Shown here one piece after another: positions 1-18,853 of a DNA stretch of 64,000 bases. The notes beneath the pieces are model-generated. The model was not told the DNA's origin. It searched no databases and saw only the letters and a program-made list of their open reading frames with translations. The stretch is from Vezdaea acicularis (taxonomy: Eukaryota). Within the stretch, counting starts at the first letter, position 1; every line of letters begins with the position of its first letter. The stretch lies in NCBI GenBank assembly GCA_026025075.1, contig JAPEUI010000016.1, positions 1 through 64,000 of the forward strand, given 5' to 3'. Position numbers and translations under genes: made by a program.

Positions 1-3000
1 GAGAGATCTGCTCATCTCGGGTTGAGTTCACTTACAACCTGCAACGGTCAAAGAGGCCGGGGTCAGCCATCGATTCAACGGAGAGATCTGCTCAGCTCGG
101 GTCAAGCTCACTTACTTCCTACAACGGGCAAAAAGGCCGGGGTCAGCCATCGATTCAATGGAGAGATCTGCTCAGCTCGGGTCGAGTTCACTTACAACCT
201 GCAACGGTCAAAGAGGCCGGGGTCAGCCATCGATTCAACGAGAGATCTGCTCAGCTTGGGTCGAGTTTACTTACAAACTGCAACGGTCAAAGAGGCCGGG
301 GTCAGCCATCGATTCAATGGAGAGATCTGCTCATCTCGGGTTGAGTTCACTTACAACCTGCAACGGTCAAAGAGGCCGGGGTCAGCCATCGATTCAACGG
401 AGAGATCTGCTCAGCTCGGGTCAAGCTCACTTACTTCCTACAACGGTCAAAGAAGCCGGGGTTAGCCATCGATTCAACAGAGAGATCTGCTCAGCTCGGG
501 TCGAATTCACTTACAACCTGCAACGGTCAAAGAGGCCGGGTTAGCCATCGATTCAATGGAGAGATCTGCTCAGCTCGGGTCGAGTTCACTTACTCTCTGC
601 AACGGTCAAAGAGGCCGGCGTCAGCCATCGACTCAACGGAGAGATCTGCTCAGCTCGGGTCGAGTTCACTTACTCTCTGCAACGGTCAAAGAGGCCAGCG
701 TCAGCCATCGATTCAGTAGAGAGATCTGCTCAGCTCGGTTTGAGTTCACTTACTTCCTACAACGGTCAAAGAAGCCGGGGTTAGCCATCAATTCAACAGA
801 GAGATCTGCTCAGCTCGGGTCGAGTTCACTTACAACCTGCAACGGTCAAAGAAGCCGACGTCAGCCATCGATTCAACAGAGAGATCCGCTCAGCTCGGGT
901 CGAGTTTACTTACTTCCTACAACAGGCAAAAAGGCCGGCGTCAGCCATCGATTTAACAGAGAGATCTACTCAGAGAGATCTGCTCAGCTCGGGTCGATTT
1001 CACTTACTCTCTGCAACGGTCAAAGAAGCTAGCGTTAGCTAACGATTCAACAGAGAGATCTGCTTAGCTCGGGTCAAGTTCACTTACTCTCTGCAGTGGT
1101 CAAAAAGGCCGGAGTCAGCCATCGATTCAACGCAGAGATCTGCTCAGCTCGGGTCGGGTTCACTTACGTCCTGCAACAGTCAAAGAGGTCGGCGTCAGCC
1201 ATCGATTCAACAGAGAGATCTGCTCAGCTCGAGTCGAGTTTACTTACAGGCTGCAACGGTCGAAGAGGCCGGGGTCAGCCATCAATTCAACGGAGAGATC
1301 AGCTCGGGTCGAGTTCACTTACAAGCTACAACGGTCAAAGAGGCCGGGGTCAGCCATCGACTCAACAGAGAGATCTGCTCTGCTCGGGTCGAGTCCACTT
1401 ACATCCTGCAACGGTCAAAGAGGCCGGCGTCAGTCATCGATTCAATAGAGAGATCTGCTCAGAGAGATCTGCTCAGCTCGGGTCGAGTTCACTTACATCC
1501 TGCAACGGTCAAAGAGGCCGGGGTCAGCCATCAGTTCAACAAAGAGATCTGCTCATCTCGGGTCGAGTTCACTTACAAGCTGCAATAGCCAAAGATGCCG
1601 GCGTCAGCCATCGATTCAACACAGAGATCTGCTCAGCTCGGGCTGAGTTCACTTACAATCTGCAACGGTCAAACAGGCCGGCGTTAGCTATTAATTCAAC
1701 AGAGAGATCTGCTCATCTCGAGTTGAGTTCACTTACAAACTACAAAAGTCAAAGAGGCCGGCATCAGCCACCAATTCAACAGAAAGATCTGCTCAGCTCG
1801 GGTCAAGTTCACTTACAAGCTACAATAGCCAAAGATGCCGGCGTCAGCCATCGATTCAACGCAGAGATCTGCTCAGCTCGGGCTGAGTTCACTTACAATC
1901 TGCAACGGTCAAAGAGGCCGGCGTCAGCCATCGACTCAACAGAGAGATCTGCTCAGAGAGATCTGCTCATCTCGGGTCGAGTTCACTTACAACCTACAAT
2001 AGTCAAAGAGGCCGGGGTCAGCCATCGATTCAATGGAGAGATCTGCTCATCTCGGGTCGAGTTCACTTACTTTCTGCAACGGTCAAAGAGGTCTGCGTCA
2101 GCCATCGATTCCACGCAGAGATCTGCTCAGCTCGGGTCGTGTTCACTTACTGGCTGCAACGGTCAAACAGGCCGGCGTTAGCTATTAATTTAACAGAGAG
2201 ATCTGCTCATCTCGAGTTGAGTTCACTTACAAACTACAAAAGTCAAAGAAGCCAGCGTTAGCTAACGATTCAACAGAGATATCTGCTCAGCTCGGGCCGA
2301 GTTCACTTACATCCTACAACGGGTAAAAAGGCCGGGGTCAGCCATCGATTCAACGGAGAGATTTGCTCAGCTCGGGTCAAGTTCACTTACCAGCTACAAT
2401 AGTCAAAGAGGCCGGGGTCAGCCATCGATTCAACAGAGAGATCTGCTCAGCTCGGGTCGAGTTCACTTACCAGCTACAATAGTCAAAGAGGCCGGGGTCA
2501 GCCATTGATTCAACAGAGAGATCTGCTCAGCTCGGGTCGAGTTCACTTACCAGCTACAATAGTCAAAGAGGCCGGGGTCAGCCATCAATTCAATGGAGAG
2601 ATCCGCTCAGCTCGGGTCGAATTCACTTACCAGCTACAATAGTCAAAGAGGCCGGGGTCAGCCATCGATTCAACAGAGAGATCTGATCATCTTGGATCAA
2701 GTTCACTTACTTTCTGCAACGGTCAAAGAGGCCGGGGTCAGCCATCGATTCAACAGAGAGATCTGCTCAGCTCGGATCGAGTTCACTTACATTCTGCAAC
2801 GGTCAAAGAGGCTGGCGTTAGCAATCGATTCAACAGAGAGATCTGCTCAGCTCGGGTCGAGTTCACTTACACCCTGGAAAGGTCAAAGAGGCCGGGGTCA
2901 GCCATCGATTCAACAGAGAGGTCTACTTAGCTCGGGTCGAGTTTACTTGCATCCTGCAACGGTCAAAGAGGCTAGCGTCAGCTATTAATCAAACAGAGAG

Positions 3001-4143
3001 ATCTGCTTAGCTCGGGTCGAGTTTACTTACATACTGCAACGGTCAAAGAGGTCGGCGTCAGCCATCGATTCAACAGAGAGATCTACTCAGCCAGGGTTGA
3101 GTTTACTGACAAGCTGCAATGGTCAAAGAGGCCAGCGTCAGCCATCGATTCAACGCAGAGGTCTGCTCAGCTCGGGTCGAGTTCACTTACAAACTGCAAT
3201 AGTCAAAGAGGCCGGGGTCAGCCATCGATTCAATGGAGAGATCTACTCAGCTTGGGTCGAGTTCACTTACTCTCTGCAACGGTAAAGGCTAGCGTCAGCT
3301 ATCGATTCAACAGAGAGATCCGCTCAGCCAAGGTTAAGTTCACTTACTCCCTGCAACGGTCAAAGAGGCCGGCGTCAGCCATCGATTCAACGGAGAGATC
3401 TGCTCAGCTAGGTTCGAGTTCACTTACAGGCTGCAACAGTCAAACAGGCCGGTGTTAGCTATTAATTCAACAGAGATCTGCTCATCTCGGGTCAAGTTCA
3501 CTTACAAGCTACAATAGTCAAAGAGGCCGGGGTCAGCCATCGATTCAACAGAGAGATCTGCTCAGCTCGGGTCGAGTTCACTTACTCTCTGCAACGGTAA
3601 AGGCTAGCGTCAGCTATCGATTCAACAGAGAGATCCGCTCAGCCAAGGTTAAGTTCACTTACTCCCTGCAACGGTCAAAGAGGTCGGCGTCAGCCATCGA
3701 TTCAACAGAGAGATCCGCTCAGCTCGGGTCGAGTTCACTTACTTCCTGCAACGGTCAAAGAGGCTAGCGTTAGCTATCGATTCAACGGAGAGATCTGCTC
3801 AGCTCGGGTCGAGTTCACTTACTTCCTGCAACAGTCAAAGAGGTCGGCGTTAGCTATCGATTCAACAGAGAAATCTGCTTAGCTTGAGTTGAGTCCACTT
3901 ACTTCCTACAATAGTCAAAGAGGCCGGCGTCAGCCATCGATTCAACAGAGAGATCTGTGCAGCCAGGTTCAAGTTTCACTTACATACTACAACAGTCAAA
4001 GAGGCCGGCGTCAGCCATCGATTCAACAAAGAGATCTGCGCAGCCAAGTTCATGCTCACTTACATACTGCAACGGTCAAAGAGGCCGGGGTCAGCCATCG
4101 ATTCAACGAAGAGATCTGCTCAGCTCGGGCCAGTTCCACTCAC
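1..4143 (-). repeat. Tandem array of ~80-bp units, each a ~77-nt spliceosomal intron plus a 3-nt microexon (51 microexons visible)
   Basis: Minus-strand consensus GTAAGTGAACTCGACCCGAGCTGAGCAGATCTCTCNGTTGAATCGATGGCTGACCCCGGCCTCTTTGACCGTTGCAG|NNN. The only hypervariable position is the triplet between YAG and the next GT. Plus-strand triplets start at 36, 116, 196, 275, ... 3903, 3984, 4064. Confidence 0.93.
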
Positions 4144-7100
4144 GATGTGCCAATACAAGTAGTTCACTTTGGCGCCCTCCGCTAGCAGTAGCTTGATGAC
4201 CGCCTCGGACCCGTTGTCAATCGCCGCAGCTAACGGTGGGCCATCACCGCAATCTATCATTTCGATATCGGCTCCACTCTCCAGTAGCAGTAACATCACC
4301 GCTTCGTGCCCGTTCCCGGCTGCAATATGCAGTGCCGTCCAATCACCTTCAGCTTTCGCATCGACGTCTGCATCGTGCTCTAGCAGTTGCCGCACCACTG
4401 CTTCATGCCCTTTTTCAGCCGCCAAGTGCAGCGCCGTCTTCTTCTCACCATCCCTCCAGTTAACATTGGCTCCGGCATCAAGCATCAATTTAACTAGTGC
4501 CTCCTCGCCCATTTCAGAGGCCAAATTAAGGGCTGAAGATCTCTCGAAATCGAACGAGAGTTCCGTAAAAAGTCCTTCACCTTTAAGCCAGTCGTTCAAG
4601 GCAGATGACAAAACCTTATCAGACGGATCTTCCTTGTGGCCCAGTGCCACTCTGATAGATAAGGTTAAAGCAGTTCCATGGAGTTCGGCAAGGAGTACAG
4701 TCAGCTGATCCTTATCACAGCATGATGTTATCGCATGGTGCCACCAATTATTGCATGCATACAGAAGAAGAGGGTATGGCTTCAAGCCAGATTCTTCAGA
4801 TGCTTTCGTGTCATAGTAATGAATGTAAGCAAGACAACTTCTAAGGATAAACCATTGGCCGTCAGACTCACGAAGTCGAAACTTCGAATCGACGCTATCG
4901 CACATTAGATACTGCTTTACGGAGAAATGGGCAAAGGTTATGGCTCTATCTTGGTCAGCAGTGCTGATGGCCTCATCCTCTAAGTGAGATTGATCGTCTA
5001 TGCCAGATACTGTGACGAGTCCGGATAAGATGTCTCGAATGTCCCGCGGATCTTGAAACCTATCTTTAGGATCGAATGATACGGAACTGTCTTTAGCATC
5101 CTGTGATGGGTCGCTTGTGTCGAAAATAGCAGCTTCAGCAGCTTCGCTGAGTTTAAGGGGTCTATTTGAAAAAGCCAACCATCTAAGAACGGCGTGTGCT
5201 TCATCTTTGTAGTCAATTCTCTCAATTCGTGACAACATCCGACTGTATGTCTCGTACAAGTCCCTCGGTAGCTGATTTAGGGCCTTCTCGACATCCCGCT
5301 CTCTCTTTTTCCGCCTAAGTGTGCCAAGCTGGCACCCGACCCACCGGAACACACCATCTGCCTTTTCTGTAAGGGTTTCAATCACTTTCTTCTGCAGTCC
5401 AGGGGACCATTTCTGAAAGTCTTTAGGCACGCAGTTTTGAAGGTGTCTTCTGATGTCGTCGTTGACTCGCGACTTCTGGATTGGAACTTTGCATATCTTG
5501 CTCGGACTTTTGCTGAGTGCACTCTCAATATCCTCCTCTAGTCTGCTTGTAATCAAAATGTGCGTATTGCTTCCTGCCCTGCAAGAAAGCTCCGCTAAGA
5601 ATTTAACAACCTCTTTTCGATCCTCCTGTAACGGGCACTCATCCAGAGCGTCGACGACGATATAAGTCTCTTCGGATTCTGTCAGGACGCCTAGGAATGT
5701 TTCATTCAGGTCTTCGATCTTCGGGTCGCGTGCCGGCTGATATTTATTATATAAATCTCGAAAAGCTCTTGGAAGATGGTAGCGGCCAGGTTCCTGTGAA
5801 TCTTCACGAACGAGACTACGAACTAATTGAATCAGGAGAGAATACGTAAGACTTCGAACATCTTGTCGTTCATTTCTTCGAAAGGAGAAGTAGAAGAAGG
5901 CCAGAACTCCCAATTTTTGCCGCTCGATCTCGTCGTTAATAGTCGAGCTCAAAACTGTCTTGCCGCACCCAGCTGCGCAACGAGGAATTTAGCGAAGGAT
6001 GGGGCTGATGAGAGATAAAACATACCTTTGCCACAAAGCCACAAGAATGACCGAGGTTGCTTCTTCCACACTTCAAACTCTTCTCTAAGAAACCAGGTGC
6101 CTGTCGACTCGGTAGTACGGTTCTTTCGAGCCTCATTATGATATTCCAATGGATCAACATATGCCAGCCATTTGAGGTGGTTATCTTTGGATGTTGCGTC
6201 GAGTGGTGGCACTGCTCAAGAAAACACGAAATAAGAATCGTTATGTTTATATCTGAAATGAGAACTTCTACGTACAGTTATTAGGAGCACGAGCGGCAAC
6301 AAAGGCGTCGATGGTCTGTTTTATTTGAGGAACTCCTAAGTAGTATTCTGTCGCTGCCTCAATCTTATCGATCTTATGTTCATCCAAGCCAACCCCTCCT
6401 AAGCCTTGCTGGACATTGTATCGGAAGTAGCGGCCGCCGACGCCTCGATCTTTATGATTTTTGAAGAATCTCTTCTCGGTTTCCTCAGTTTCCGTCGAGA
6501 TAGCTTTGAGTGTCTCGACCACCTCCTTCAGGTTATCTCCAAAATCTTTCAAGTCGGGAACTCCCGTCCCGATGCTCACAAGACTCTGGATTCTAGGTCT
6601 AGCATCTGGCCAGATAGACTCTGCTTCTTCGAGCACTACTTCCACGGGATTATTGAAGCCCGTCGCTCCATCAACAAATTTTTGCCTGCCAATCTCGATC
6701 GGATCAAAGAACATAGCGGCTGCAGAGGTGGCACGAGCTGCTTGCCAGATAGTACACTCCGAGCTAGCCAAAGTATCGATCGCATCATCAGTGCTGTAGG
6801 TGCGGAGCCGTACAGGTGTGTTTAATGTTTTGGTGAAGGCACACACAAATCTGTAAGGAGAAATATTCAGTTTCGAATAGGAACGGAAAATTATGTCATA
6901 TTAATAGATATGCTGAACCTACACTTTGCAAGGTGCATTGGAGTTCCTCAACTTCGCCTCGGCATCGCCTTCCTGGGACTTGACAATATTTCTAATCTCA
7001 GAGGCGAGAGAGTCTGAAGAGTACGTTCCTTCAACCTTCAATATATCTTTTGCCTTCCCAAAGAAGTTTCCTTTTACCCTCTTGGGCTGGAATGCCGCCG

Positions 7101-7499
7101 ATGACAGCTCAATGTATTTGTTGATGCAAGTATCGACGTCCATTTGGAGCCGACCCAACATGATAGCGATAAGCCTGAAATTGGAAGGGTAAGCCATTTA
7201 TTTTTATATTTATCATTTTTTTCCTTGGTATATCAACGACAAGATGGGAAGCTCACCCTCCAGTGCTTGTCCCGCCGATTAAATCGAAATACTCGCAGGG
7301 CTTTGGGGGATTTTGCGGTCTTACTCTCTTCATCAGGTGTTTGAGAATGATAAGAGAAGAAAGCCCACGTATACCGCCTCCATCTGTAGTGAACAGATTA
7401 GCGAGAGTTACCAAATCAATACTGATTGCTCGGCATACCTAACGAGAGAAGTTTCAGTGAAGAAGGAGTAGCAGTCGGAGCAGGATTTGGGGACGCCAT
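1..7499 (-). CDS. Fungal NLR-like STAND protein: patatin-like phospholipase - NACHT - ankyrin repeats, continuing through a microexon array (3' end outside window)
   Basis: Exons reconstructed by hand: 7499-7439, 7383-7257, 7174-6923, 6850-6276, 6211-6026, 5972-4144, all joined by GT-AG introns in frame. Patatin motifs: LSLDGGGIRG, FDLIGGTSTGG, FVDGA. NACHT Walker A GKAGCGKT is formed across the 6026/5972 junction; Walker B is YIVVDALDEC. Four ankyrin repeats follow (SALNLAS, TALHLAAEKGH, TALHIAAGNGH, PPLAAAIDNGS). A GTGAGT donor at 4143 follows ...VNYLYWHI. Confidence 0.93.
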
Positions 7500-7696: not shown

Positions 7697-7917
7697 TGTT
7701 GTGGGACAAGGCGACAGGACATAGGGGGCAGCGACTATAGAGATAGGGGCAAGGGGAGCTGCGGCATCTGGACATAAGGTAAGCGACGAGTCGCGCCCCG
7801 ACACAGGATACCTATATATAGCCGTATCCCTCTAGATAGAATAATATAACTCTTTCATGACGAACTCATAGCAGGACGCCTTGTCCCTGAAGTGTCCGGA
7901 CGCCCCGTGCCCTGACA
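7697..7917 (-). mobile_element. Solo LTR (TGT...ACA), inverted copy of the family at 8634-8918
   Basis: Reverse complement begins TGTCAGGGCACGG and ends GTCCCACAACA, like the 8634 copy. Internal TCTATCTAG...GGATAC...TATATA segment is shared. No matching target-site duplication. Confidence 0.75.
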
Positions 7918-9428
7918 TTCCTTTTCGCAGACAATCATCCTCAGTGGGAGTACGAAAAGTACGATGGAAGCATCACAGAGGTCAAAGGAGATGGAAGCCT
8001 GGTTCTCAATATCGGTTCAGCCCATGGCGTTTTGGCTGGCGATGAGTACGAAATTTATATATTGAATGTGCTGGGCACTCCCACAGCTCAATCTGCAGGC
8101 ACACTGAGAGTCTCAGCCGTGGACCAGTTGAACTCTACAGCAGATTGCTTGCAACAAGACAATGTCAATGTCAACGGCTGTCCAATCGTGCTGCAGACTC
8201 GGGTAACTAGTCATAGATTAGTCATTCAATTTGGATCCAAAGCGACGTCTAAATCAGCGAAGAAAGCTATCGACGAACTTCGCACCTGCTGGATATCCTC
8301 AAAGGGCAAAGTGCTTCCTCGGCTTTTGCCGGCTGGTCAGACACTGCAACCACAGGACCCACGTCTGGAACTCATGATTGACGTCGGAACGTCAACACAA
8401 GGTGAAGAGTACATCATTGTAGATGGCTTTGGCCAGCGACTTCCCCATGTGCCACCCCTTCCCGTGGGAAGCAGTCATGAAGCAGAGAAGGTTGTTCTCG
8501 TGATGGCGCATATTGCGCAATACACGCTCTTCAAGGTTCACAGAAACCCAGCATCGCATACGGGTCCCAATTTGTTCTCCTTTAGCCTCAAAGACTACCA
8601 AGGACAACAAAATGCCACTACGGTTACTACAATTGTCAGGGCACGGGTGTCCTAACACGTCAGGGCACTAGGCGTCCTGATATAAGATGGGGATCAAAGA
8701 GTTGTATTCATTCTATCTAGGGGGATACGCTATATATATAAGGCATCACGTGCCCGGTCACGACTGCCTGGTCAGGACAGCGCGGCAGGCGCTGTCTGTT
8801 GCAGGGCAGTCGCATGCCTCATAGCGCTGCCCCTGTAGGCAGGCGCTATAAGAAGGCTGCCTATATTAGTATCCCTACGTAGCTACTCCCTGCCCCTATA
8901 TCCCTTTGTCCCACAACAACAATCAACAAAAAGGACCACATAATCCTCCACTTCAAGAACAATCAACCCCTACCCTCACCCGACCCTCCAAATGTCCGTT
9001 ACCCGCTGCCAAAAGACACAAACTCTCTCTATGCATATTTCTTTGACTTGACTCCAAACTACGGGGTGCATCGTATGGTTTCAACTGAAAATCGCCTCGA
9101 GAATAACCTAATCGAACCCCAGCAAGAGCTGGAGGATGATTTTCCAATGGAAATTCCGCCAGAGCTCTCAGCAGATGACAGCATCCTTGACATTCTCAAA
9201 GCGATTGTCACAACTTCACTGACCGACTTTGACAGCATTGGTATGAAAGACCTCAATGATGTCGACGATCTTGTGACTCGAGGCGTCGATGATGACGACA
9301 AAATTAGTGACATTCTTGAAGCGATTCTGAATGACTCTGGAATGCGGAGTAACTCTAGCACTACAAAGGTTCAGATCAGCGACTGGCATGTTGAACAGCG
9401 GATCATTGAGACAGTGAGGAAAAGGTGA
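7918..9428 (+). pseudogene. 5'-truncated, LTR-interrupted gene; resembles the C-terminal part of fungal caspase (peptidase C14)-domain proteins
   Basis: Frame is open from 7918 (FLFADNH...LNIGSAHGVLAGDEYEIY). Removing the LTR and one TSD joins ...VTTI to NKKDHIILHFKN...LYAYFFDLTPNY...DILKAIVTTS, in frame with ORF 9048-9428. Family assignment is from remembered motif resemblance only. Confidence 0.6.
8634..8918 (+). mobile_element. Solo LTR with 5-bp target-site duplication
   Basis: TGTCAGGGCACGG...GTCCCACAACA flanked by ACAAT at 8629-8633 and 8919-8923; internal TATA-like run. Confidence 0.88.
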
Positions 9429-10755: not shown

Positions 10756-13203
10756 ATGGCACCGACTCGCTCTTCTAAACCAAAAGCTTCTCCGGCTTGT
10801 CAAAGTCAAGAGGAGAGAAAAACCATTATTGATAAGTCATTTAGAACTGCTTTGTTACATAGCCTTGTACACATCATTCCAGTCTCAATCAGTGTGGCCT
10901 TAGTCGCCATGAGTGTGAAAAAGGTATATATCGGGCCCAGCTTAAGCTTCAGGCCATGGAGCACAGCGATTACCCTAGCTGTGTTTCAGATGTGTGCCAA
11001 ATTACAGGTTCGAAAATAATCAGTTCCGTTCGCAATTACTTCCTGATGAGACGATTCAGGAACTTTTGATGATCATAAGCATGACGCCAGTGATCATTCA
11101 AGTCATCAGACATCAGCTTTTGCACGGAGACGGCTTGCCTCTTGGCTTGGTGGCCTCAGGCTTCACCTTCACGAGACTGAGTTCTATGCGGTCCAGGGCA
11201 ATGTACACGTGGAAAGGGCTTCAAACCGGATCAGCCAAAGCCCAGAGAACGTTGGTGGTACTCTCCATCTTTGTTATTACGGCTCTCGCTACCGTGGCTG
11301 GTCCTGCGAGTGCCGTTCTCATGCTACCTAGGCAAACAGTAAATCATTGAAAATAGCTTTTAAAGTTATCAGCTAAAATATCATCCAGGATCGGATTGTT
11401 TACACGCGTCAATTTTGGCTTAATGGAAGCCTGGACGATTTATTTCCCACAACTTTAAACGCAACCCATATTGGCGACATTTCGCCTTCTGACAATGGCT
11501 GCACTCAGCCCAATAGCTTCATAGACACTGGGTGCATCTCTGTGGCCTATCAGAAGCTGCAAGCCCTATTTGATAGTGCACCGAGCATCTCTCATTGGGA
11601 CTGGACTTTCATTACGAGAGAGCCATCTTTTGCGAGGGTGGTAGCTGTCCAAGAAAAGGCCAACGGATCTAATCCCGAGACGTGGGCAAGAACTCCTCAT
11701 GCCGCTACTGCATACGTGCAAAATCTGCTTTGGTGGGATCCTAGTTGGTGGATTCGATTTAAGGAGAGTGAAAATGGTCGTCGATCCACTGTGAGGTCTC
11801 AATCGGCAAGTGTCAGGACTGCTTGCACGTGGCAAGCTATTGCAGTCAATACAACTGAGGTAAATTTCCCTACGCTAGAGGCACACAAAACTTATCTTTA
11901 CGACTTGTTCACCCCTATGGCTATTAAGCCAAGCACCTGGAGTTATGATAATAAGTCGTTCATCGGTCCAGATATAGTCAGAACGGTATGGATCGAGGAT
12001 GCACAAGCAATCGACTCTGTCACAGCGGGTTTAATGGTTCTTGCGCCATTAAAGGATCTAAAGGACTCTTCTCGGTCTGCGCTAGCATGTTTGATCGATG
12101 CGAGATGGACTGAGAGTGACCACATCCAAGCGGACGGTCTATTGGATATCGCTATCTCTTCGGAATTGGTGAAGAAACGTCATCAGAATCCTAGAAATAC
12201 GGATTTTGGCTTTTTAACGGACATTAATAGTGGCTGGCAGAGTATCAAGGCTACTCTGGACTGGCTTGAACCATTGACGCCTACTGTACCGTACCTCACG
12301 CCGTCACTTAACTTGTCCACGCCCGCATCAACGATCGGAAACCTATTGATGAAGACAAATAATACTTACATTACACCAATCACCTCTGTCACTACTGGTT
12401 ACCAGGACTCTCCATATGTCTTCTGGGAGAAATTAATTGCGGCCTACTTCGCAGACGGTGTCTCACGTGTAGGTTTTGCCCGGCAGCTAGAATCGAACAG
12501 CTTCGTCACCGACGGCTCAAAAGCAGCTACAGCTCCCTGCCTTCCTCCGACTCCGGAACGCGTGGGGGCAATCTGTCCTAGGCCTCCGCCCCAGGATGGA
12601 CAGTTCACAGCTTTAAATATCCGGGGCGTACTCACAGACAGTAGGTTGCGAACCTCGCTCCCTGGCCCCTTTCGAACTCAGATTCCCAAGCTAACAAATT
12701 TCCTTTTTTTTTTTTGCACAGTATACGCCTACCACGCCTCCGCAACAACAGACTACCTCTCCATTGCCGCTCTTATCTTCTACGTCATTATAGCCACGGC
12801 CCATCTCTCCTACACTCTGATCCGGCGGCGCAGCTCCCGTGCGTGGGAACGTCTCGAAGACCTCCTCGCTCTCGTCCATAGTTCTCGTCCTGCGCCTGAC
12901 GTGCTATCTAATACCTGCGCTGGTATGAAGGCATTGGACTGCAGAGCGAAGAACGTGAAGATTGTCATCGTTGGCGGGAAAAGTGGTGAGATAAGGCGGG
13001 ATGGCGGCGACGAAGAGGAAGGGGCGGTAGAACTTGGTGAGAAGAGAGAAGGTACCGAAAGCGGAGAAGAGGATGCGGATGCGGATGCGGGAGAAGGAGG
13101 AGGAGGAGAGGCTGTGCAGATGGTGTTCGTGGAGAGTATGCACAGACGAGACGCTGTGTATGGCATTGTGGAAGCTGGTGTGAAGTATGGAAAGATGGAG
13201 TGA
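10756..13203 (+). CDS. Hypothetical multi-pass membrane protein (about 4 exons)
   Basis: ORFs 10669-11019, 10994-11350 and 11542-13203 can be joined through short introns. N-terminal hydrophobic helices, AKLQELL and AGPASAVLMLPR motifs, and a C-terminal TM helix followed by an acidic tail, as seen in many uncharacterised fungal membrane proteins. Confidence 0.65.
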
Positions 13204-13554: not shown

Positions 13555-15158
13555 ATGACCTCAAACTACAACTCTAGCACTCGCGCTTACTCGGCTCGCG
13601 GTACAGTTCAGCCTGAGCGAGAACCAGAATTGCGAAAGCCGTTGTTCAAGATACCAGTGTTTCCACTTAGACTTTTAAAATGTCCACAGAAGTACTTGGA
13701 CCTTTCAACGTACTTGGTCGATACGGTTCCTACGTCTTTCCCCAAGTTATGCGCCAACGGCCAGATTATTGTTGGCCTCCAGAAAGAAATCGCCGCAGAT
13801 GGAAAATGGGTAGAAGCGTTTTCCTCTGAGAAACTGGATACAATCAGTGAGGAAGAGTGAATGAAGGCGCTCAAAGTCCTCCAAAACTATCAAAAACAAT
13901 GGAAGAGTGCAGAAAAAATCGTCCATTTCATAAATCTTTTACATGGTGGAGGCCCCTACGTAATACCTAGCAGCCTCAATTTGGCCGATACACCCATTTA
14001 CCACCATGACATATTTATGGCCCAGTGCTTCATTGCTCTCCTGGGTACCACTATCTTCAACAAGTGTCTTCACGTCAAACGCGATCTTGAAGACGATTTC
14101 GTCCTGGCGCTGAACCAGGGTTGCAAGCTACTAGATACGACAACTTTCAATAACAGGAAAGGCCATGATCAGAACAAGTGGAGGAAAATCATCGAAGAGA
14201 ATTACAAAATCTACGAAATGGGATCAGAAATTGAAAGTGCTCCTCTTCAAGGCCGCTTTTCAACTGAGGAATCTTCCCCACAACTCTTTACTTCCAAAGA
14301 AATTCCCAAGCAAGCCAAGCAAGCCAAGAAAGTGGAGACAGCCTGGTGCCCGGTTCTCAAAGACTTTATTCCCAAAGACAAAGGCATTGCGGCTCATATT
14401 GTTCCACATGCAATAGGCTACCGCTTGGCAAAAAAATATTCGAAGACCATGAACAGGGAAAGAGTATTGTCTTCAGTCCCCGCAACGGGTTGTGGATGGC
14501 CAAAAATGTGGAACGAGCCATGGATAATGCCCAACTCAATCTTGTTCCAAACGACACCGAGAACCTGGACTTTGAAACGCAGACGTACGACCTCAAGCTG
14601 ATGGTTCTCGACAAAACATTGCTGGACCCAAAACACAACATGATCCTGAGCGTGATGCAACCTGATAATACACAAAAAAAATACTACTGGGGAGACGTTG
14701 ACGGGACAACTCTGAACTTCCGAGAAGCGAAGGCCAGACTGGCAAAGCGATTCCTGTTCTTCAACTATCTTTTCACAACATGCCGCATCGTCGAACAGAA
14801 GCCCCCTTGCTTTGACGACCGCTTGGAGACGTTGGGAAATATGGGTCGGAGCTGGGCAACTCCGGGCAGTTATCTCGCCCGCGGTTTGCTTGACACAATG
14901 AAGGCAAGGGTGGAGCGGCAGCTGCTCCCGGCTCGTCTACACTCCAACATTGGGCACAATGAACATGACGGGCAAGACACAATTCGCCGCGCCGATCCCG
15001 CGCCCTTTGACGCGTCTTCAACACCAGATCTTAAGATTATAGCGGCAAATGAGGGGATGCAAATTGCAAGTAGCATGCTCGAGCACCAGCACGAGTTGTT
15101 CATCCCTGAGGAATCTGTTCCTGGTTATGGAAGCGAGCTGAGCGACGTAAAGTTGTAG
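13555..15158 (+). pseudogene. HNH-endonuclease-like (HNH_2 type) gene with nonsense codon and frameshift
   Basis: Motifs WCPV...AAHIVPH...FSPRNGLWM...ERAMD. In-frame TGA at 13858-13860 between abutting ORFs. Frame change in the A-run near 14430 joins AHIVPHAIGYRLA to KKIFEDHEQG. Confidence 0.7.
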
Positions 15159-16332: not shown

Positions 16333-17295
16333 TCACACTAGAGCCATTCCAAACGCATACCCCAGGCTAGCTGCGTAAGCTCTTACTTCATGCTCACTCC
16401 TTTGGACTTCGTTTTGAAGAGCATGGAGCGAAACAGATCGGATTTCGAGCTCGACAACTGCATGCCATCCTATCCTACCTTGCCGAAATTTGCCAATGCT
16501 CATGACGCTCTGCACGTTGGTCACTAAAGGACCGCTTCCCTTCCAGCAACCTTCGCGACTCTCACCTTCCAAATCCAGTGCAATGAAATTTTGAGCCTTG
16601 GACCTAGTAAGCATTGATTCTAGCTTGATGCATTGATTCAAGATCATGGTGCAGCTTCCTTGCACAGCCACATCGACATGCTGATCATACACAGCGTTGT
16701 CGCCATCCCGTACTCGGAGTCTCCACCGATCAGGTATCGAATGCCGTCCTGTACAAAGCTCACCATCCAGTAATCGAAGATCGTGGATTAGCAACACATT
16801 CGTGGAAGTGCGACCAATGGGTTCTCGCTTCAGCCAGCCGAATGCAATTTCCTTGCCAATGGTACGGCCAAGTCTCATGACAAGCCTTTCGATCAGGTCG
16901 GAGATCGCTTGAGCATCATCTCCGTTTAGCAAAGACTGGAGACTGATATCATAAAGTGCTTCCTCTGCAGAATTTGATATGTCTTCATCTTCGAGACCTC
17001 GTAAAAGTACGCTCGTGAATATTGTCTCTGACTCAATTACTTTCTTGGCGCCTTGGAAGCCAGCCGGATCCAAGGCACAGGCTGTGATCACGTTGCCGAT
17101 GAAGAGTAACTCCAGCGAGAACCAGTCTACAATGGGTGCTTCTGAGAGTGCTAGGAGACGATCGCCGCTGAGCTCTGACAAAACATAAGAAGGAAGTATC
17201 TCGGCTTTTCTTGAGTCAAGCTTGAACGGCAGCGGCTCTAGGATCAAATCACAAAACGTCTCGTCCCCATTCTGCGCTGCTGGCTCGTGAACCAC
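16333..17295 (-). CDS. Hypothetical 320-codon ORF, possibly a gene fragment
   Basis: Long stop-free frame with protein-like composition but no ATG start and no motif I recognise; abuts a transposon remnant. Confidence 0.3.
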   Translation of the reverse strand: MVHEPAAQNGDETFCDLILEPLPFKLDSRKAEILPSYVLSELSGDRLLALSEAPIVDWFSLELLFIGNVITACALDPAGFQGAKKVIESETIFTSVLLRGLEDEDISNSAEEALYDISLQSLLNGDDAQAISDLIERLVMRLGRTIGKEIAFGWLKREPIGRTSTNVLLIHDLRLLDGELCTGRHSIPDRWRLRVRDGDNAVYDQHVDVAVQGSCTMILNQCIKLESMLTRSKAQNFIALDLEGESREGCWKGSGPLVTNVQSVMSIGKFRQGRIGWHAVVELEIRSVSLHALQNEVQRSEHEVRAYAASLGYAFGMALV

Positions 17296-17459
17296 TAAAG
17301 CGTCCTAGGCTATGTCTGCCGATCGAAAAGATTGCCACGTGGGATTGATTGACATAGCAAGTCTCCTGTCTACAAAGCGCAACGCCGGAATTCTTGCGTC
17401 CACGGCGGGAGAGTCACGTGCTTGGTATTCAAGCAGAGGATGCGTGCTGGTGAACTGAA

Positions 17460-18536: not shown

Positions 18537-18853
18537 TGTCAGGACACGGCATGGGGCGTCCTGTCAGTAAACGTTGTTTATGAAAAAGTTGTCTCATTTA
18601 TCTAGCTAGGGGATTCGTCTCTATATAAAGGGCAAAGGATATCCGGTCATAACTGCCTGGACAAGACAGCGCTGCTAGTCGCGGCAAACGCTGTCCGTCC
18701 TAGGACAGTCGCATGACGTACAAGCGCTGCCCCTATTAGTAGGCGCCATATGATTGCTCCCTATCCTTGCATCCGGGTGTCGCTGCCCTCTAGCCCCTAT
18801 GTCCAGGCAATGCTTCCTCCTGCCCAGACGCCCCTACCTCGTGTCCCATAACA
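18537..18853 (+). mobile_element. Solo LTR, diverged third copy of the same family
   Basis: TGTCAGGACACGG...GTCCCATAACA. Shares CCGGTCA-ACTGCCTGG-CA-GACAGCGC, CAGTCGCATG and AGCGCTGCCCCT blocks with 8634-8918. No TSD. Confidence 0.75.

Follow-up and report, generated by a model that had tools for sequence, protein, structure and literature searches.

Predicted codon-sized microexons in tandem lead into the last ankyrin hairpin of a patatin-NACHT-ankyrin gene of Vezdaea acicularis

Codon-sized mini-exons in NACHT-ankyrin genes are already known from Tuber melanosporum, where, according to the sections of the cited papers available to us, an expanded family of NACHT-ANK genes is diversified by dozens of 3-bp mini-exons and reviews report extensive alternative splicing of them (PMC4986451, PMC3689799, PMC10197012, PMC9815663, PMC13449251). 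The available part of one review cites this mechanism as a lineage-specific oddity (PMC13449251). In Podospora, NLRs of the HNWD and NACHT-ANK types, whose repeats are highly similar, are described, in the portion seen, as shuffling whole repeats in DNA, with diversification centred on the hairpins and the concave face of the sensor (PMC4986451). In the brown algal NB-ARC-TPR/ROCO genes, as summarised in the review section available, alternative splicing diversifies a repeat sensor and each exon encodes a whole repeat (PMC13449251). Among engineered proteins, the available descriptions state that DARPin libraries randomise the beta-turn (PMC4384111), and that the added randomised loop of LoopDARPins, short and of fixed length, gives binders on an ankyrin scaffold (PMC4384111, PMC9611651, PMC6356946).

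We analysed a stretch of 64,000 nucleotides (the window) that starts at base 1 of contig C68 in the 18.9 Mb genome of Vezdaea acicularis, an ascomycete of uncertain placement. Pfam searches and exon mapping showed that a gene on the minus strand encodes a patatin-NACHT-ankyrin protein, and a protein search returned P0121 (Vezdaea acicularis M1824_001554) as 100% identical to it (Table 1). As in Tuber, with which the comparison is by description, this is a NACHT-ankyrin gene with dozens of 3-bp exons (66 units observed) affecting the C-terminal sensor domain; unlike Tuber, there is one gene, with a patatin effector, in another lineage. A whole-genome scan for the tandem-microexon pattern showed a single such gene and no expanded family or paralogue array: 55 of the 57 matches fell within this gene's array and the remaining two were single, at the level of the reversed control (3 and 9). 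The Vezdaea exon is one codon rather than a whole repeat as in the algae, single residues rather than shuffled repeats would be strung into one hairpin by the predicted splicing, and in contrast to LoopDARPins the Vezdaea-type insert is natural, variable in length, at least 86 residues long in its largest form and confined to the last hairpin. What we add to the known mini-exons is thus a mapped and conserved hairpin site, a wider fungal range, inserts of 53 or more and of 86 residues, and arrays in other types of gene. Neither the insertion point nor such arrays outside Tuber were found in the non-subscription literature searched; the Tuber primary study may already give the insertion position.

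The NACHT and ankyrin domains lie in the open frame 5988-4120 (minus strand), with the patatin domain on exons further upstream. The patatin catalytic motifs GGGIRG, GTSTG and DGA are all intact, as are Walker A and Walker B of the NACHT domain in exon 6. The gene therefore has the parts of a fungal NLR, namely a NACHT domain with Walker A/B, an N-terminal effector and C-terminal repeats, and patatin is among the effector classes named in the NLR sources as far as these were available. Elsewhere in the window, we observed two diverged copies of a non-coding stretch (8656-8816 and 18540-18715) about 9.9 kb apart, and a similar, inverted-looking stretch at ∼7700-7920; the two copies are possibly the ends of a mobile element. 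The neighbouring long open frames (7891-8655, 11377-13203, 14268-15158 and 16333-17304) gave no Pfam match.

Table 1. Features of the gene on the window and on contig C117 (the boundaries of exons 1-4 are accurate to 1-3 bases)
Feature	Position	Strand	Evidence
Exons 1-4: patatin-like phospholipase domain	6277..7499	-	P0121 mapped on window; Pfam Patatin E 4.5e-9; motifs
Exon 5: start of NACHT region	6027..6209	-	P0121 mapping
Exon 6: NACHT, helical domains, ankyrin repeats; phase-0 donor at end	4144..5973	-	Pfam NPHP3_N, NACHT, Ank; P0121 mapping
Ankyrin stack as far as last hairpin	4144..4545	-	Pfam Ank_2, Ank, Ank_KRIT1; repeat register
YLYWHI, fixed N-terminal half of last beta-hairpin	4144..4161	-	Sequence and 22-protein comparison
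First array intron, 77 nt (gtgagt ... branch point ... cag)	4067..4143	-	Sequence; P0121 mapping
First predicted codon microexon, TAT (Tyr)	4064..4066	-	Splice-unit parse
51 predicted phase-0 3-nt microexons in ∼80-bp units, running off contig start	36..4066	-	YAG-NNN-G(T/C)NAG(T/C) pattern
Junction to rest of gene (on G000:C117)	window 1..234	-	Overlap with C117 end
15 further predicted microexons	C117 19170-18023	-	Splice-unit parse
Last intron, 53 nt, ends ttag	C117, between 18023 and 17969	-	Splice-unit parse
Final exon, starts TPLSHAA, 66 codons then stop	C117 17969-17772	-	Splice parse; Pfam Ank

The earlier note on this DNA had placed the start of the array directly after LLLAEGAKVNYLYWHI, and we confirmed this. 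The peptide is encoded at 4191-4144 (minus strand), the long exon ends after GAKVN-YLYWHI, and a phase-0 donor (gtgagt) follows at 4143, with the first microexon at 4066-4064. Reading through the first intron instead yields the annotated C-terminus of the public model, VSGTGPS, with a stop seven codons past the donor. The 51 units of the window are mostly spaced at 80 bp; the introns between them are 72-91 nt long (77 nt in 41 of the 51), and each of the 51 has a CTRAY branch motif 12-35 nt upstream of the AG. Within the array, the strict pattern YAG-NNN-GTRAGT had 49 occurrences on the strand of the gene and none on the opposite strand, against 1 and 2 on the two strands of the remaining 59.8 kb. 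When all 66 units were compared, variability peaked at the three exon bases (1.9, 1.7 and 1.3 bits, versus 0-1.26 at 50 flanking positions), and both AG bases and four of the six donor bases were invariant. Stop triplets were absent (0 of 66, with 2.2 expected), which is not significant alone (P 0.11). We are confident in reading the array as predicted spliced coding microexons.

Elsewhere in the genome, the array repeat was found only at the end of contig C117, in matching orientation. The final 127 bases of C117 are the same as window 108-234, and window 1-127 is the same as window 320-446. The proposed join of C68 and C117 is based on this 127-base overlap, on the restriction of the unit to these two places and on the orthologue P0172, rather than on a spanning read. 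Since we take the overlap as a loop of the assembly graph, the true copy number would be 63-67 or more. The final exon on C117 reads TPLSHAAVRRNRTVVKLLLNHC and matches Pfam Ank positions 4-27 (E 0.0029, below the curated cutoff); judged from its sequence, it opens as the start of ankyrin helix 1. Consistent with what the earlier note had expected, the downstream exon thus resumes with an ankyrin motif (TPLSHAA). The outcome that the note had set against its own proposal, a non-ankyrin exon or an immediate stop after the array, does not apply, because a 66-codon exon that starts with TPL, an ankyrin helix start, follows. Alternative acceptors past the last donor on C117 gave short non-ankyrin frames or a shortened version of the TPL exon. 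By eye, the last intron and first codons of the TPL exon (C117 ∼17990-17960) resemble the middle of the 80-bp unit, and the same holds in the metagenome locus L104. The resemblance on C117 suggests that the unit grew out of the original intron-exon boundary.

The spacing of the repeats is informative about the insertion point. Each of the three repeats before the last hairpin has seven residues between its xAxV/I-N/D/E motif and T/P-A/P-L, and for the last hairpin itself exon 6 supplies six fixed residues; one microexon would therefore restore the canonical spacing, zero would leave the hairpin one residue short, and more than one would make an insertion just before the T. The repeat with this fixed half (the signature repeat) was present in 22 of the 103 proteins examined. 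All 22 have Y or C at positions 1 and 3 of the fixed half, and 17 have P at position 5. In nineteen of them, among which is P0121, the sequence continues as VS or VG once 6-7 hairpin residues have passed; those with names come from Glutinoglossum, Trichoglossum, Geoglossum and Fusarium. Judged from the protein sequences, this ending is read-through of the donor. In an Elaphomyces protein, the chain stops after six residues. Tuber sequences were absent among the matches listed in the protein searches. Queries with ankyrin-containing proteins mostly returned long ankyrin proteins, and none of the six loose motif matches among newly listed proteins carried the signature; the ESM Atlas returned generic ankyrin clusters only, and a relative of P0172 was not found in the viral contigs searched.

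Two contiguous natural forms were found. The JGI protein P0172 has the same upstream repeat, then 92 residues in the hairpin (6 fixed + 86 variable, versus 7 in its other repeats) and then TPL, and so joins both halves of the gene in one frame. Its upstream part matches C68 at 75-78%, and its residues 325-369 match C117:17838-17972 (71%, E 2.6e-13; 32 of 45 residues identical). Rather than an mRNA, P0172 may represent an intronless copy in the genome. The second form, P0122, has 53 residues past the fixed six and then runs into an intron of the repeat type. Read-through of the upstream intron at its N-terminus, together with a longest contig of 30 kb, makes it look genomic. The retention of the upstream intron beside a 53-residue microexon-like string in P0122 hints that spliced strings are written back to the genome.

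We built an AlphaFold model of P0172 from a 19-sequence alignment. In this model, a bridge connects 237-238 with 324-325, after which come three helices (327-369); pLDDT is 71-89 for residues 321-370 and <50 for 241-321, and the upstream repeats are confident. In a wide structural search, the ankyrin chain 6ndz_B aligned with all of its 190 residues over model positions 71-346 with 86 positions skipped (Z 26.3, rmsd 1.6 Å), and 189 residues of Notch (1ot8_A) aligned over 68-344 (Z 23.5, rmsd 1.4 Å). As both structures align across the insert, the model predicts an insert looped out of the hairpin, with the last repeat stacking and continuing the solenoid. The best Foldseek matches and most of the narrower structure matches end before the insert, and folding P0172 from its sequence alone gave a poor model (mean pLDDT 53, and <50 at residues 234-336). 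The low pLDDT of the insert says little, because the insert has no alignment depth.

To look at the pattern more widely, we scanned metagenomes for tandem microexons, which gave at least 114 loci, of which 80 were fetched. Twenty-eight passed as varied arrays; the other 52 did not, many of them being simple repeats. In 27 independent arrays only one of the 360 triplets was a stop versus 18 expected, and the stop filter had removed none. Five loci share the junctions of the window gene: the donor lies 5-6 fixed residues into the same hairpin in L084, L106 and L144, and the last acceptor is followed by TPL in L104 and L125. As parsed, one array triplet of L106 is a stop; either a parsing error or a terminating microexon might account for it. 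With a repeat end upstream and a TPL helix start downstream, and with the metagenome junctions, P0172 and its model in agreement, it is in our judgement very likely that the insertion point is an ankyrin beta-hairpin, as the earlier note had claimed, and specifically the one linking the penultimate and last repeats.

Arrays were also present in other genes. At L092:4074-6971 the host is an alpha/beta-hydrolase-NACHT-ANK gene in which the break apparently falls ∼4 residues further on, within the helix start, and at L091:2827-4711 it is another ankyrin gene, with the array apparently at a position other than the mapped hairpin. These two loci speak against a universal site. Five loci (L069, L098, L107, L114 and L116) have 10-32 varied triplets near the 3' end of a multi-exon gene family with a GxxNAGKTT P-loop and without ankyrin repeats, to which L073, L127 and L129/L130 were assigned through similar flanking exons. 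Matches of this family to Pfam MMR_HSR1/Arf are weak and below cutoff; we take its members to be basidiomycete GTPase-like genes, and arrays in them were not found in the literature searched. At L115:3427-5715, 31 triplets stand directly behind a NACHT exon with no repeat domain preceding, and more varied triplet arrays were seen at L080, L085, L087, L095, L120, L133 and L137. Prokaryote genomes scanned for the pattern yielded chiefly chance pairs (chains of two or fewer in 70 of 80 loci, and one chain of 8).

A binding role for the variable hairpin loop is plausible by analogy, given the use of hairpins by ankyrin proteins, the selected sites in Podospora and the DARPin precedents. In ankyrin complexes, interactions are reported to be enriched in hairpins, 15% of binding residues are insertions, and insertions fall mostly in hairpins and between helices, as far as the available text goes (PMC4687027); positively selected sites of a Podospora NACHT-ANK protein lie on inner helices and hairpins, according to the part of the review seen (PMC4986451). 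The hairpin position alone, on the other hand, proves no binding, because the same partly available survey finds that hairpins tolerate insertions best (PMC4687027). We would put the chance that the loop itself contacts the recognised molecule at about even. In LoopDARPins the extra loop is reportedly placed in the beta-turn. The earlier note had likened the variable peptide to an antibody CDR loop grafted onto the sensor domain, and this picture survives in part. The variable peptide would lie in a sensor hairpin, as it requires; however, typical CDR loops are much shorter than the natural inserts, the insert has no confident modelled structure, and the fixed half of the hairpin is a special YxYxP-type strand and not the usual ankyrin turn. 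The insert lengths are nearer to a small variable domain or a flexible bait than to an ordinary CDR.

On the whole, we lean slightly towards the view that this patatin-NACHT-ankyrin gene is a fungal NLR in which the last ankyrin hairpin would serve as a programmable insertion site. In the DNA, the fixed hairpin strand is followed by an estimated 63-67 predicted phase-0 codon exons and then by TPL, the final repeat and a capping helix. Since the exons are whole codons in phase 0, any subset of them would keep the frame, adding one residue each. As P0172 and its model show, a long string can sit in the hairpin while the final repeat still stacks. By analogy with Tuber, the microexons are probably included or skipped combinatorially, and the units may also be reshuffled at the DNA level. 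The concave binding face would thereby carry many loop variants, most likely widening the recognition range of the sensor, and binding would, as NLR architecture implies, release NACHT oligomerisation and patatin lipase activity.

Instead of a shaped binding site, the insert could be flexible and serve as a target that foreign enzymes cleave or modify, or it could tune NACHT autoinhibition. The natural inserts fit this in being long, compositionally simple, without confident structure and just before the capping repeat. However, aromatic and charged residues abound in the inserts and in what the arrays encode, a composition common among binding loops. The site also lies on the face where fungal ANK sensors are reported, in the accessible portion of the review, to be under positive selection (PMC4986451). 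We consider such a bait or regulatory role rather unlikely. Somewhat less likely again is near-constitutive inclusion of the microexons, which would give one long loop per allele, altered by unequal crossing-over of the 80-bp units and differing between individuals and not between transcripts. The 86 variable residues of P0172, equal to or more than the whole array, would agree with it, as would the exact block duplications within the array and a 12-residue piece of P0172 that resembles the microexon order of C117 (2 of 2000 shuffles; in the other of the two tests, the window part showed no resemblance, 837 of 2000). Against this stand the extensive alternative splicing that the reviews, in the parts available, report for Tuber, and the fact that skipping would need whole-codon phase-0 units such as those present. 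Neutral or selfish proliferation of introns at an insertion-tolerant site would account for near-identical tandem units and for the tolerance of hairpins (PMC4687027, in the available part), but most of the variation falls on the three exon bases, arrays of this kind turn up in unrelated types of gene as well and stops are purged from the metagenome arrays, which makes it improbable. An untranslated minisatellite, with the protein ending in VSGTGPS as P0121 and most relatives are annotated, is more improbable still in view of the invariant splice signals and branch points, the conserved TPL exon and the contiguous P0172.

The programmable hairpin may be one instance of something broader. It is possible, though we hold this combined view only tentatively, that codon-microexon arrays are a widespread, reusable generator of diversity in fungi, a random peptide library built by the spliceosome on one surface loop of an immune receptor. 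Such arrays would have entered the ankyrin NLRs of several classes of ascomycetes as well as unrelated P-loop GTPase-like and NACHT genes, and spliced strings would occasionally be written back to the genome (P0122 and P0172) so that a selected loop becomes heritable. Public annotations stop these genes at the donor, and the VS/VG read-through end is therefore a simple marker by which they can be recognised. We know of no ligand for most fungal NLRs. With a single gene and all of the variation in one mapped hairpin, the question of sensor diversity becomes testable in Vezdaea.
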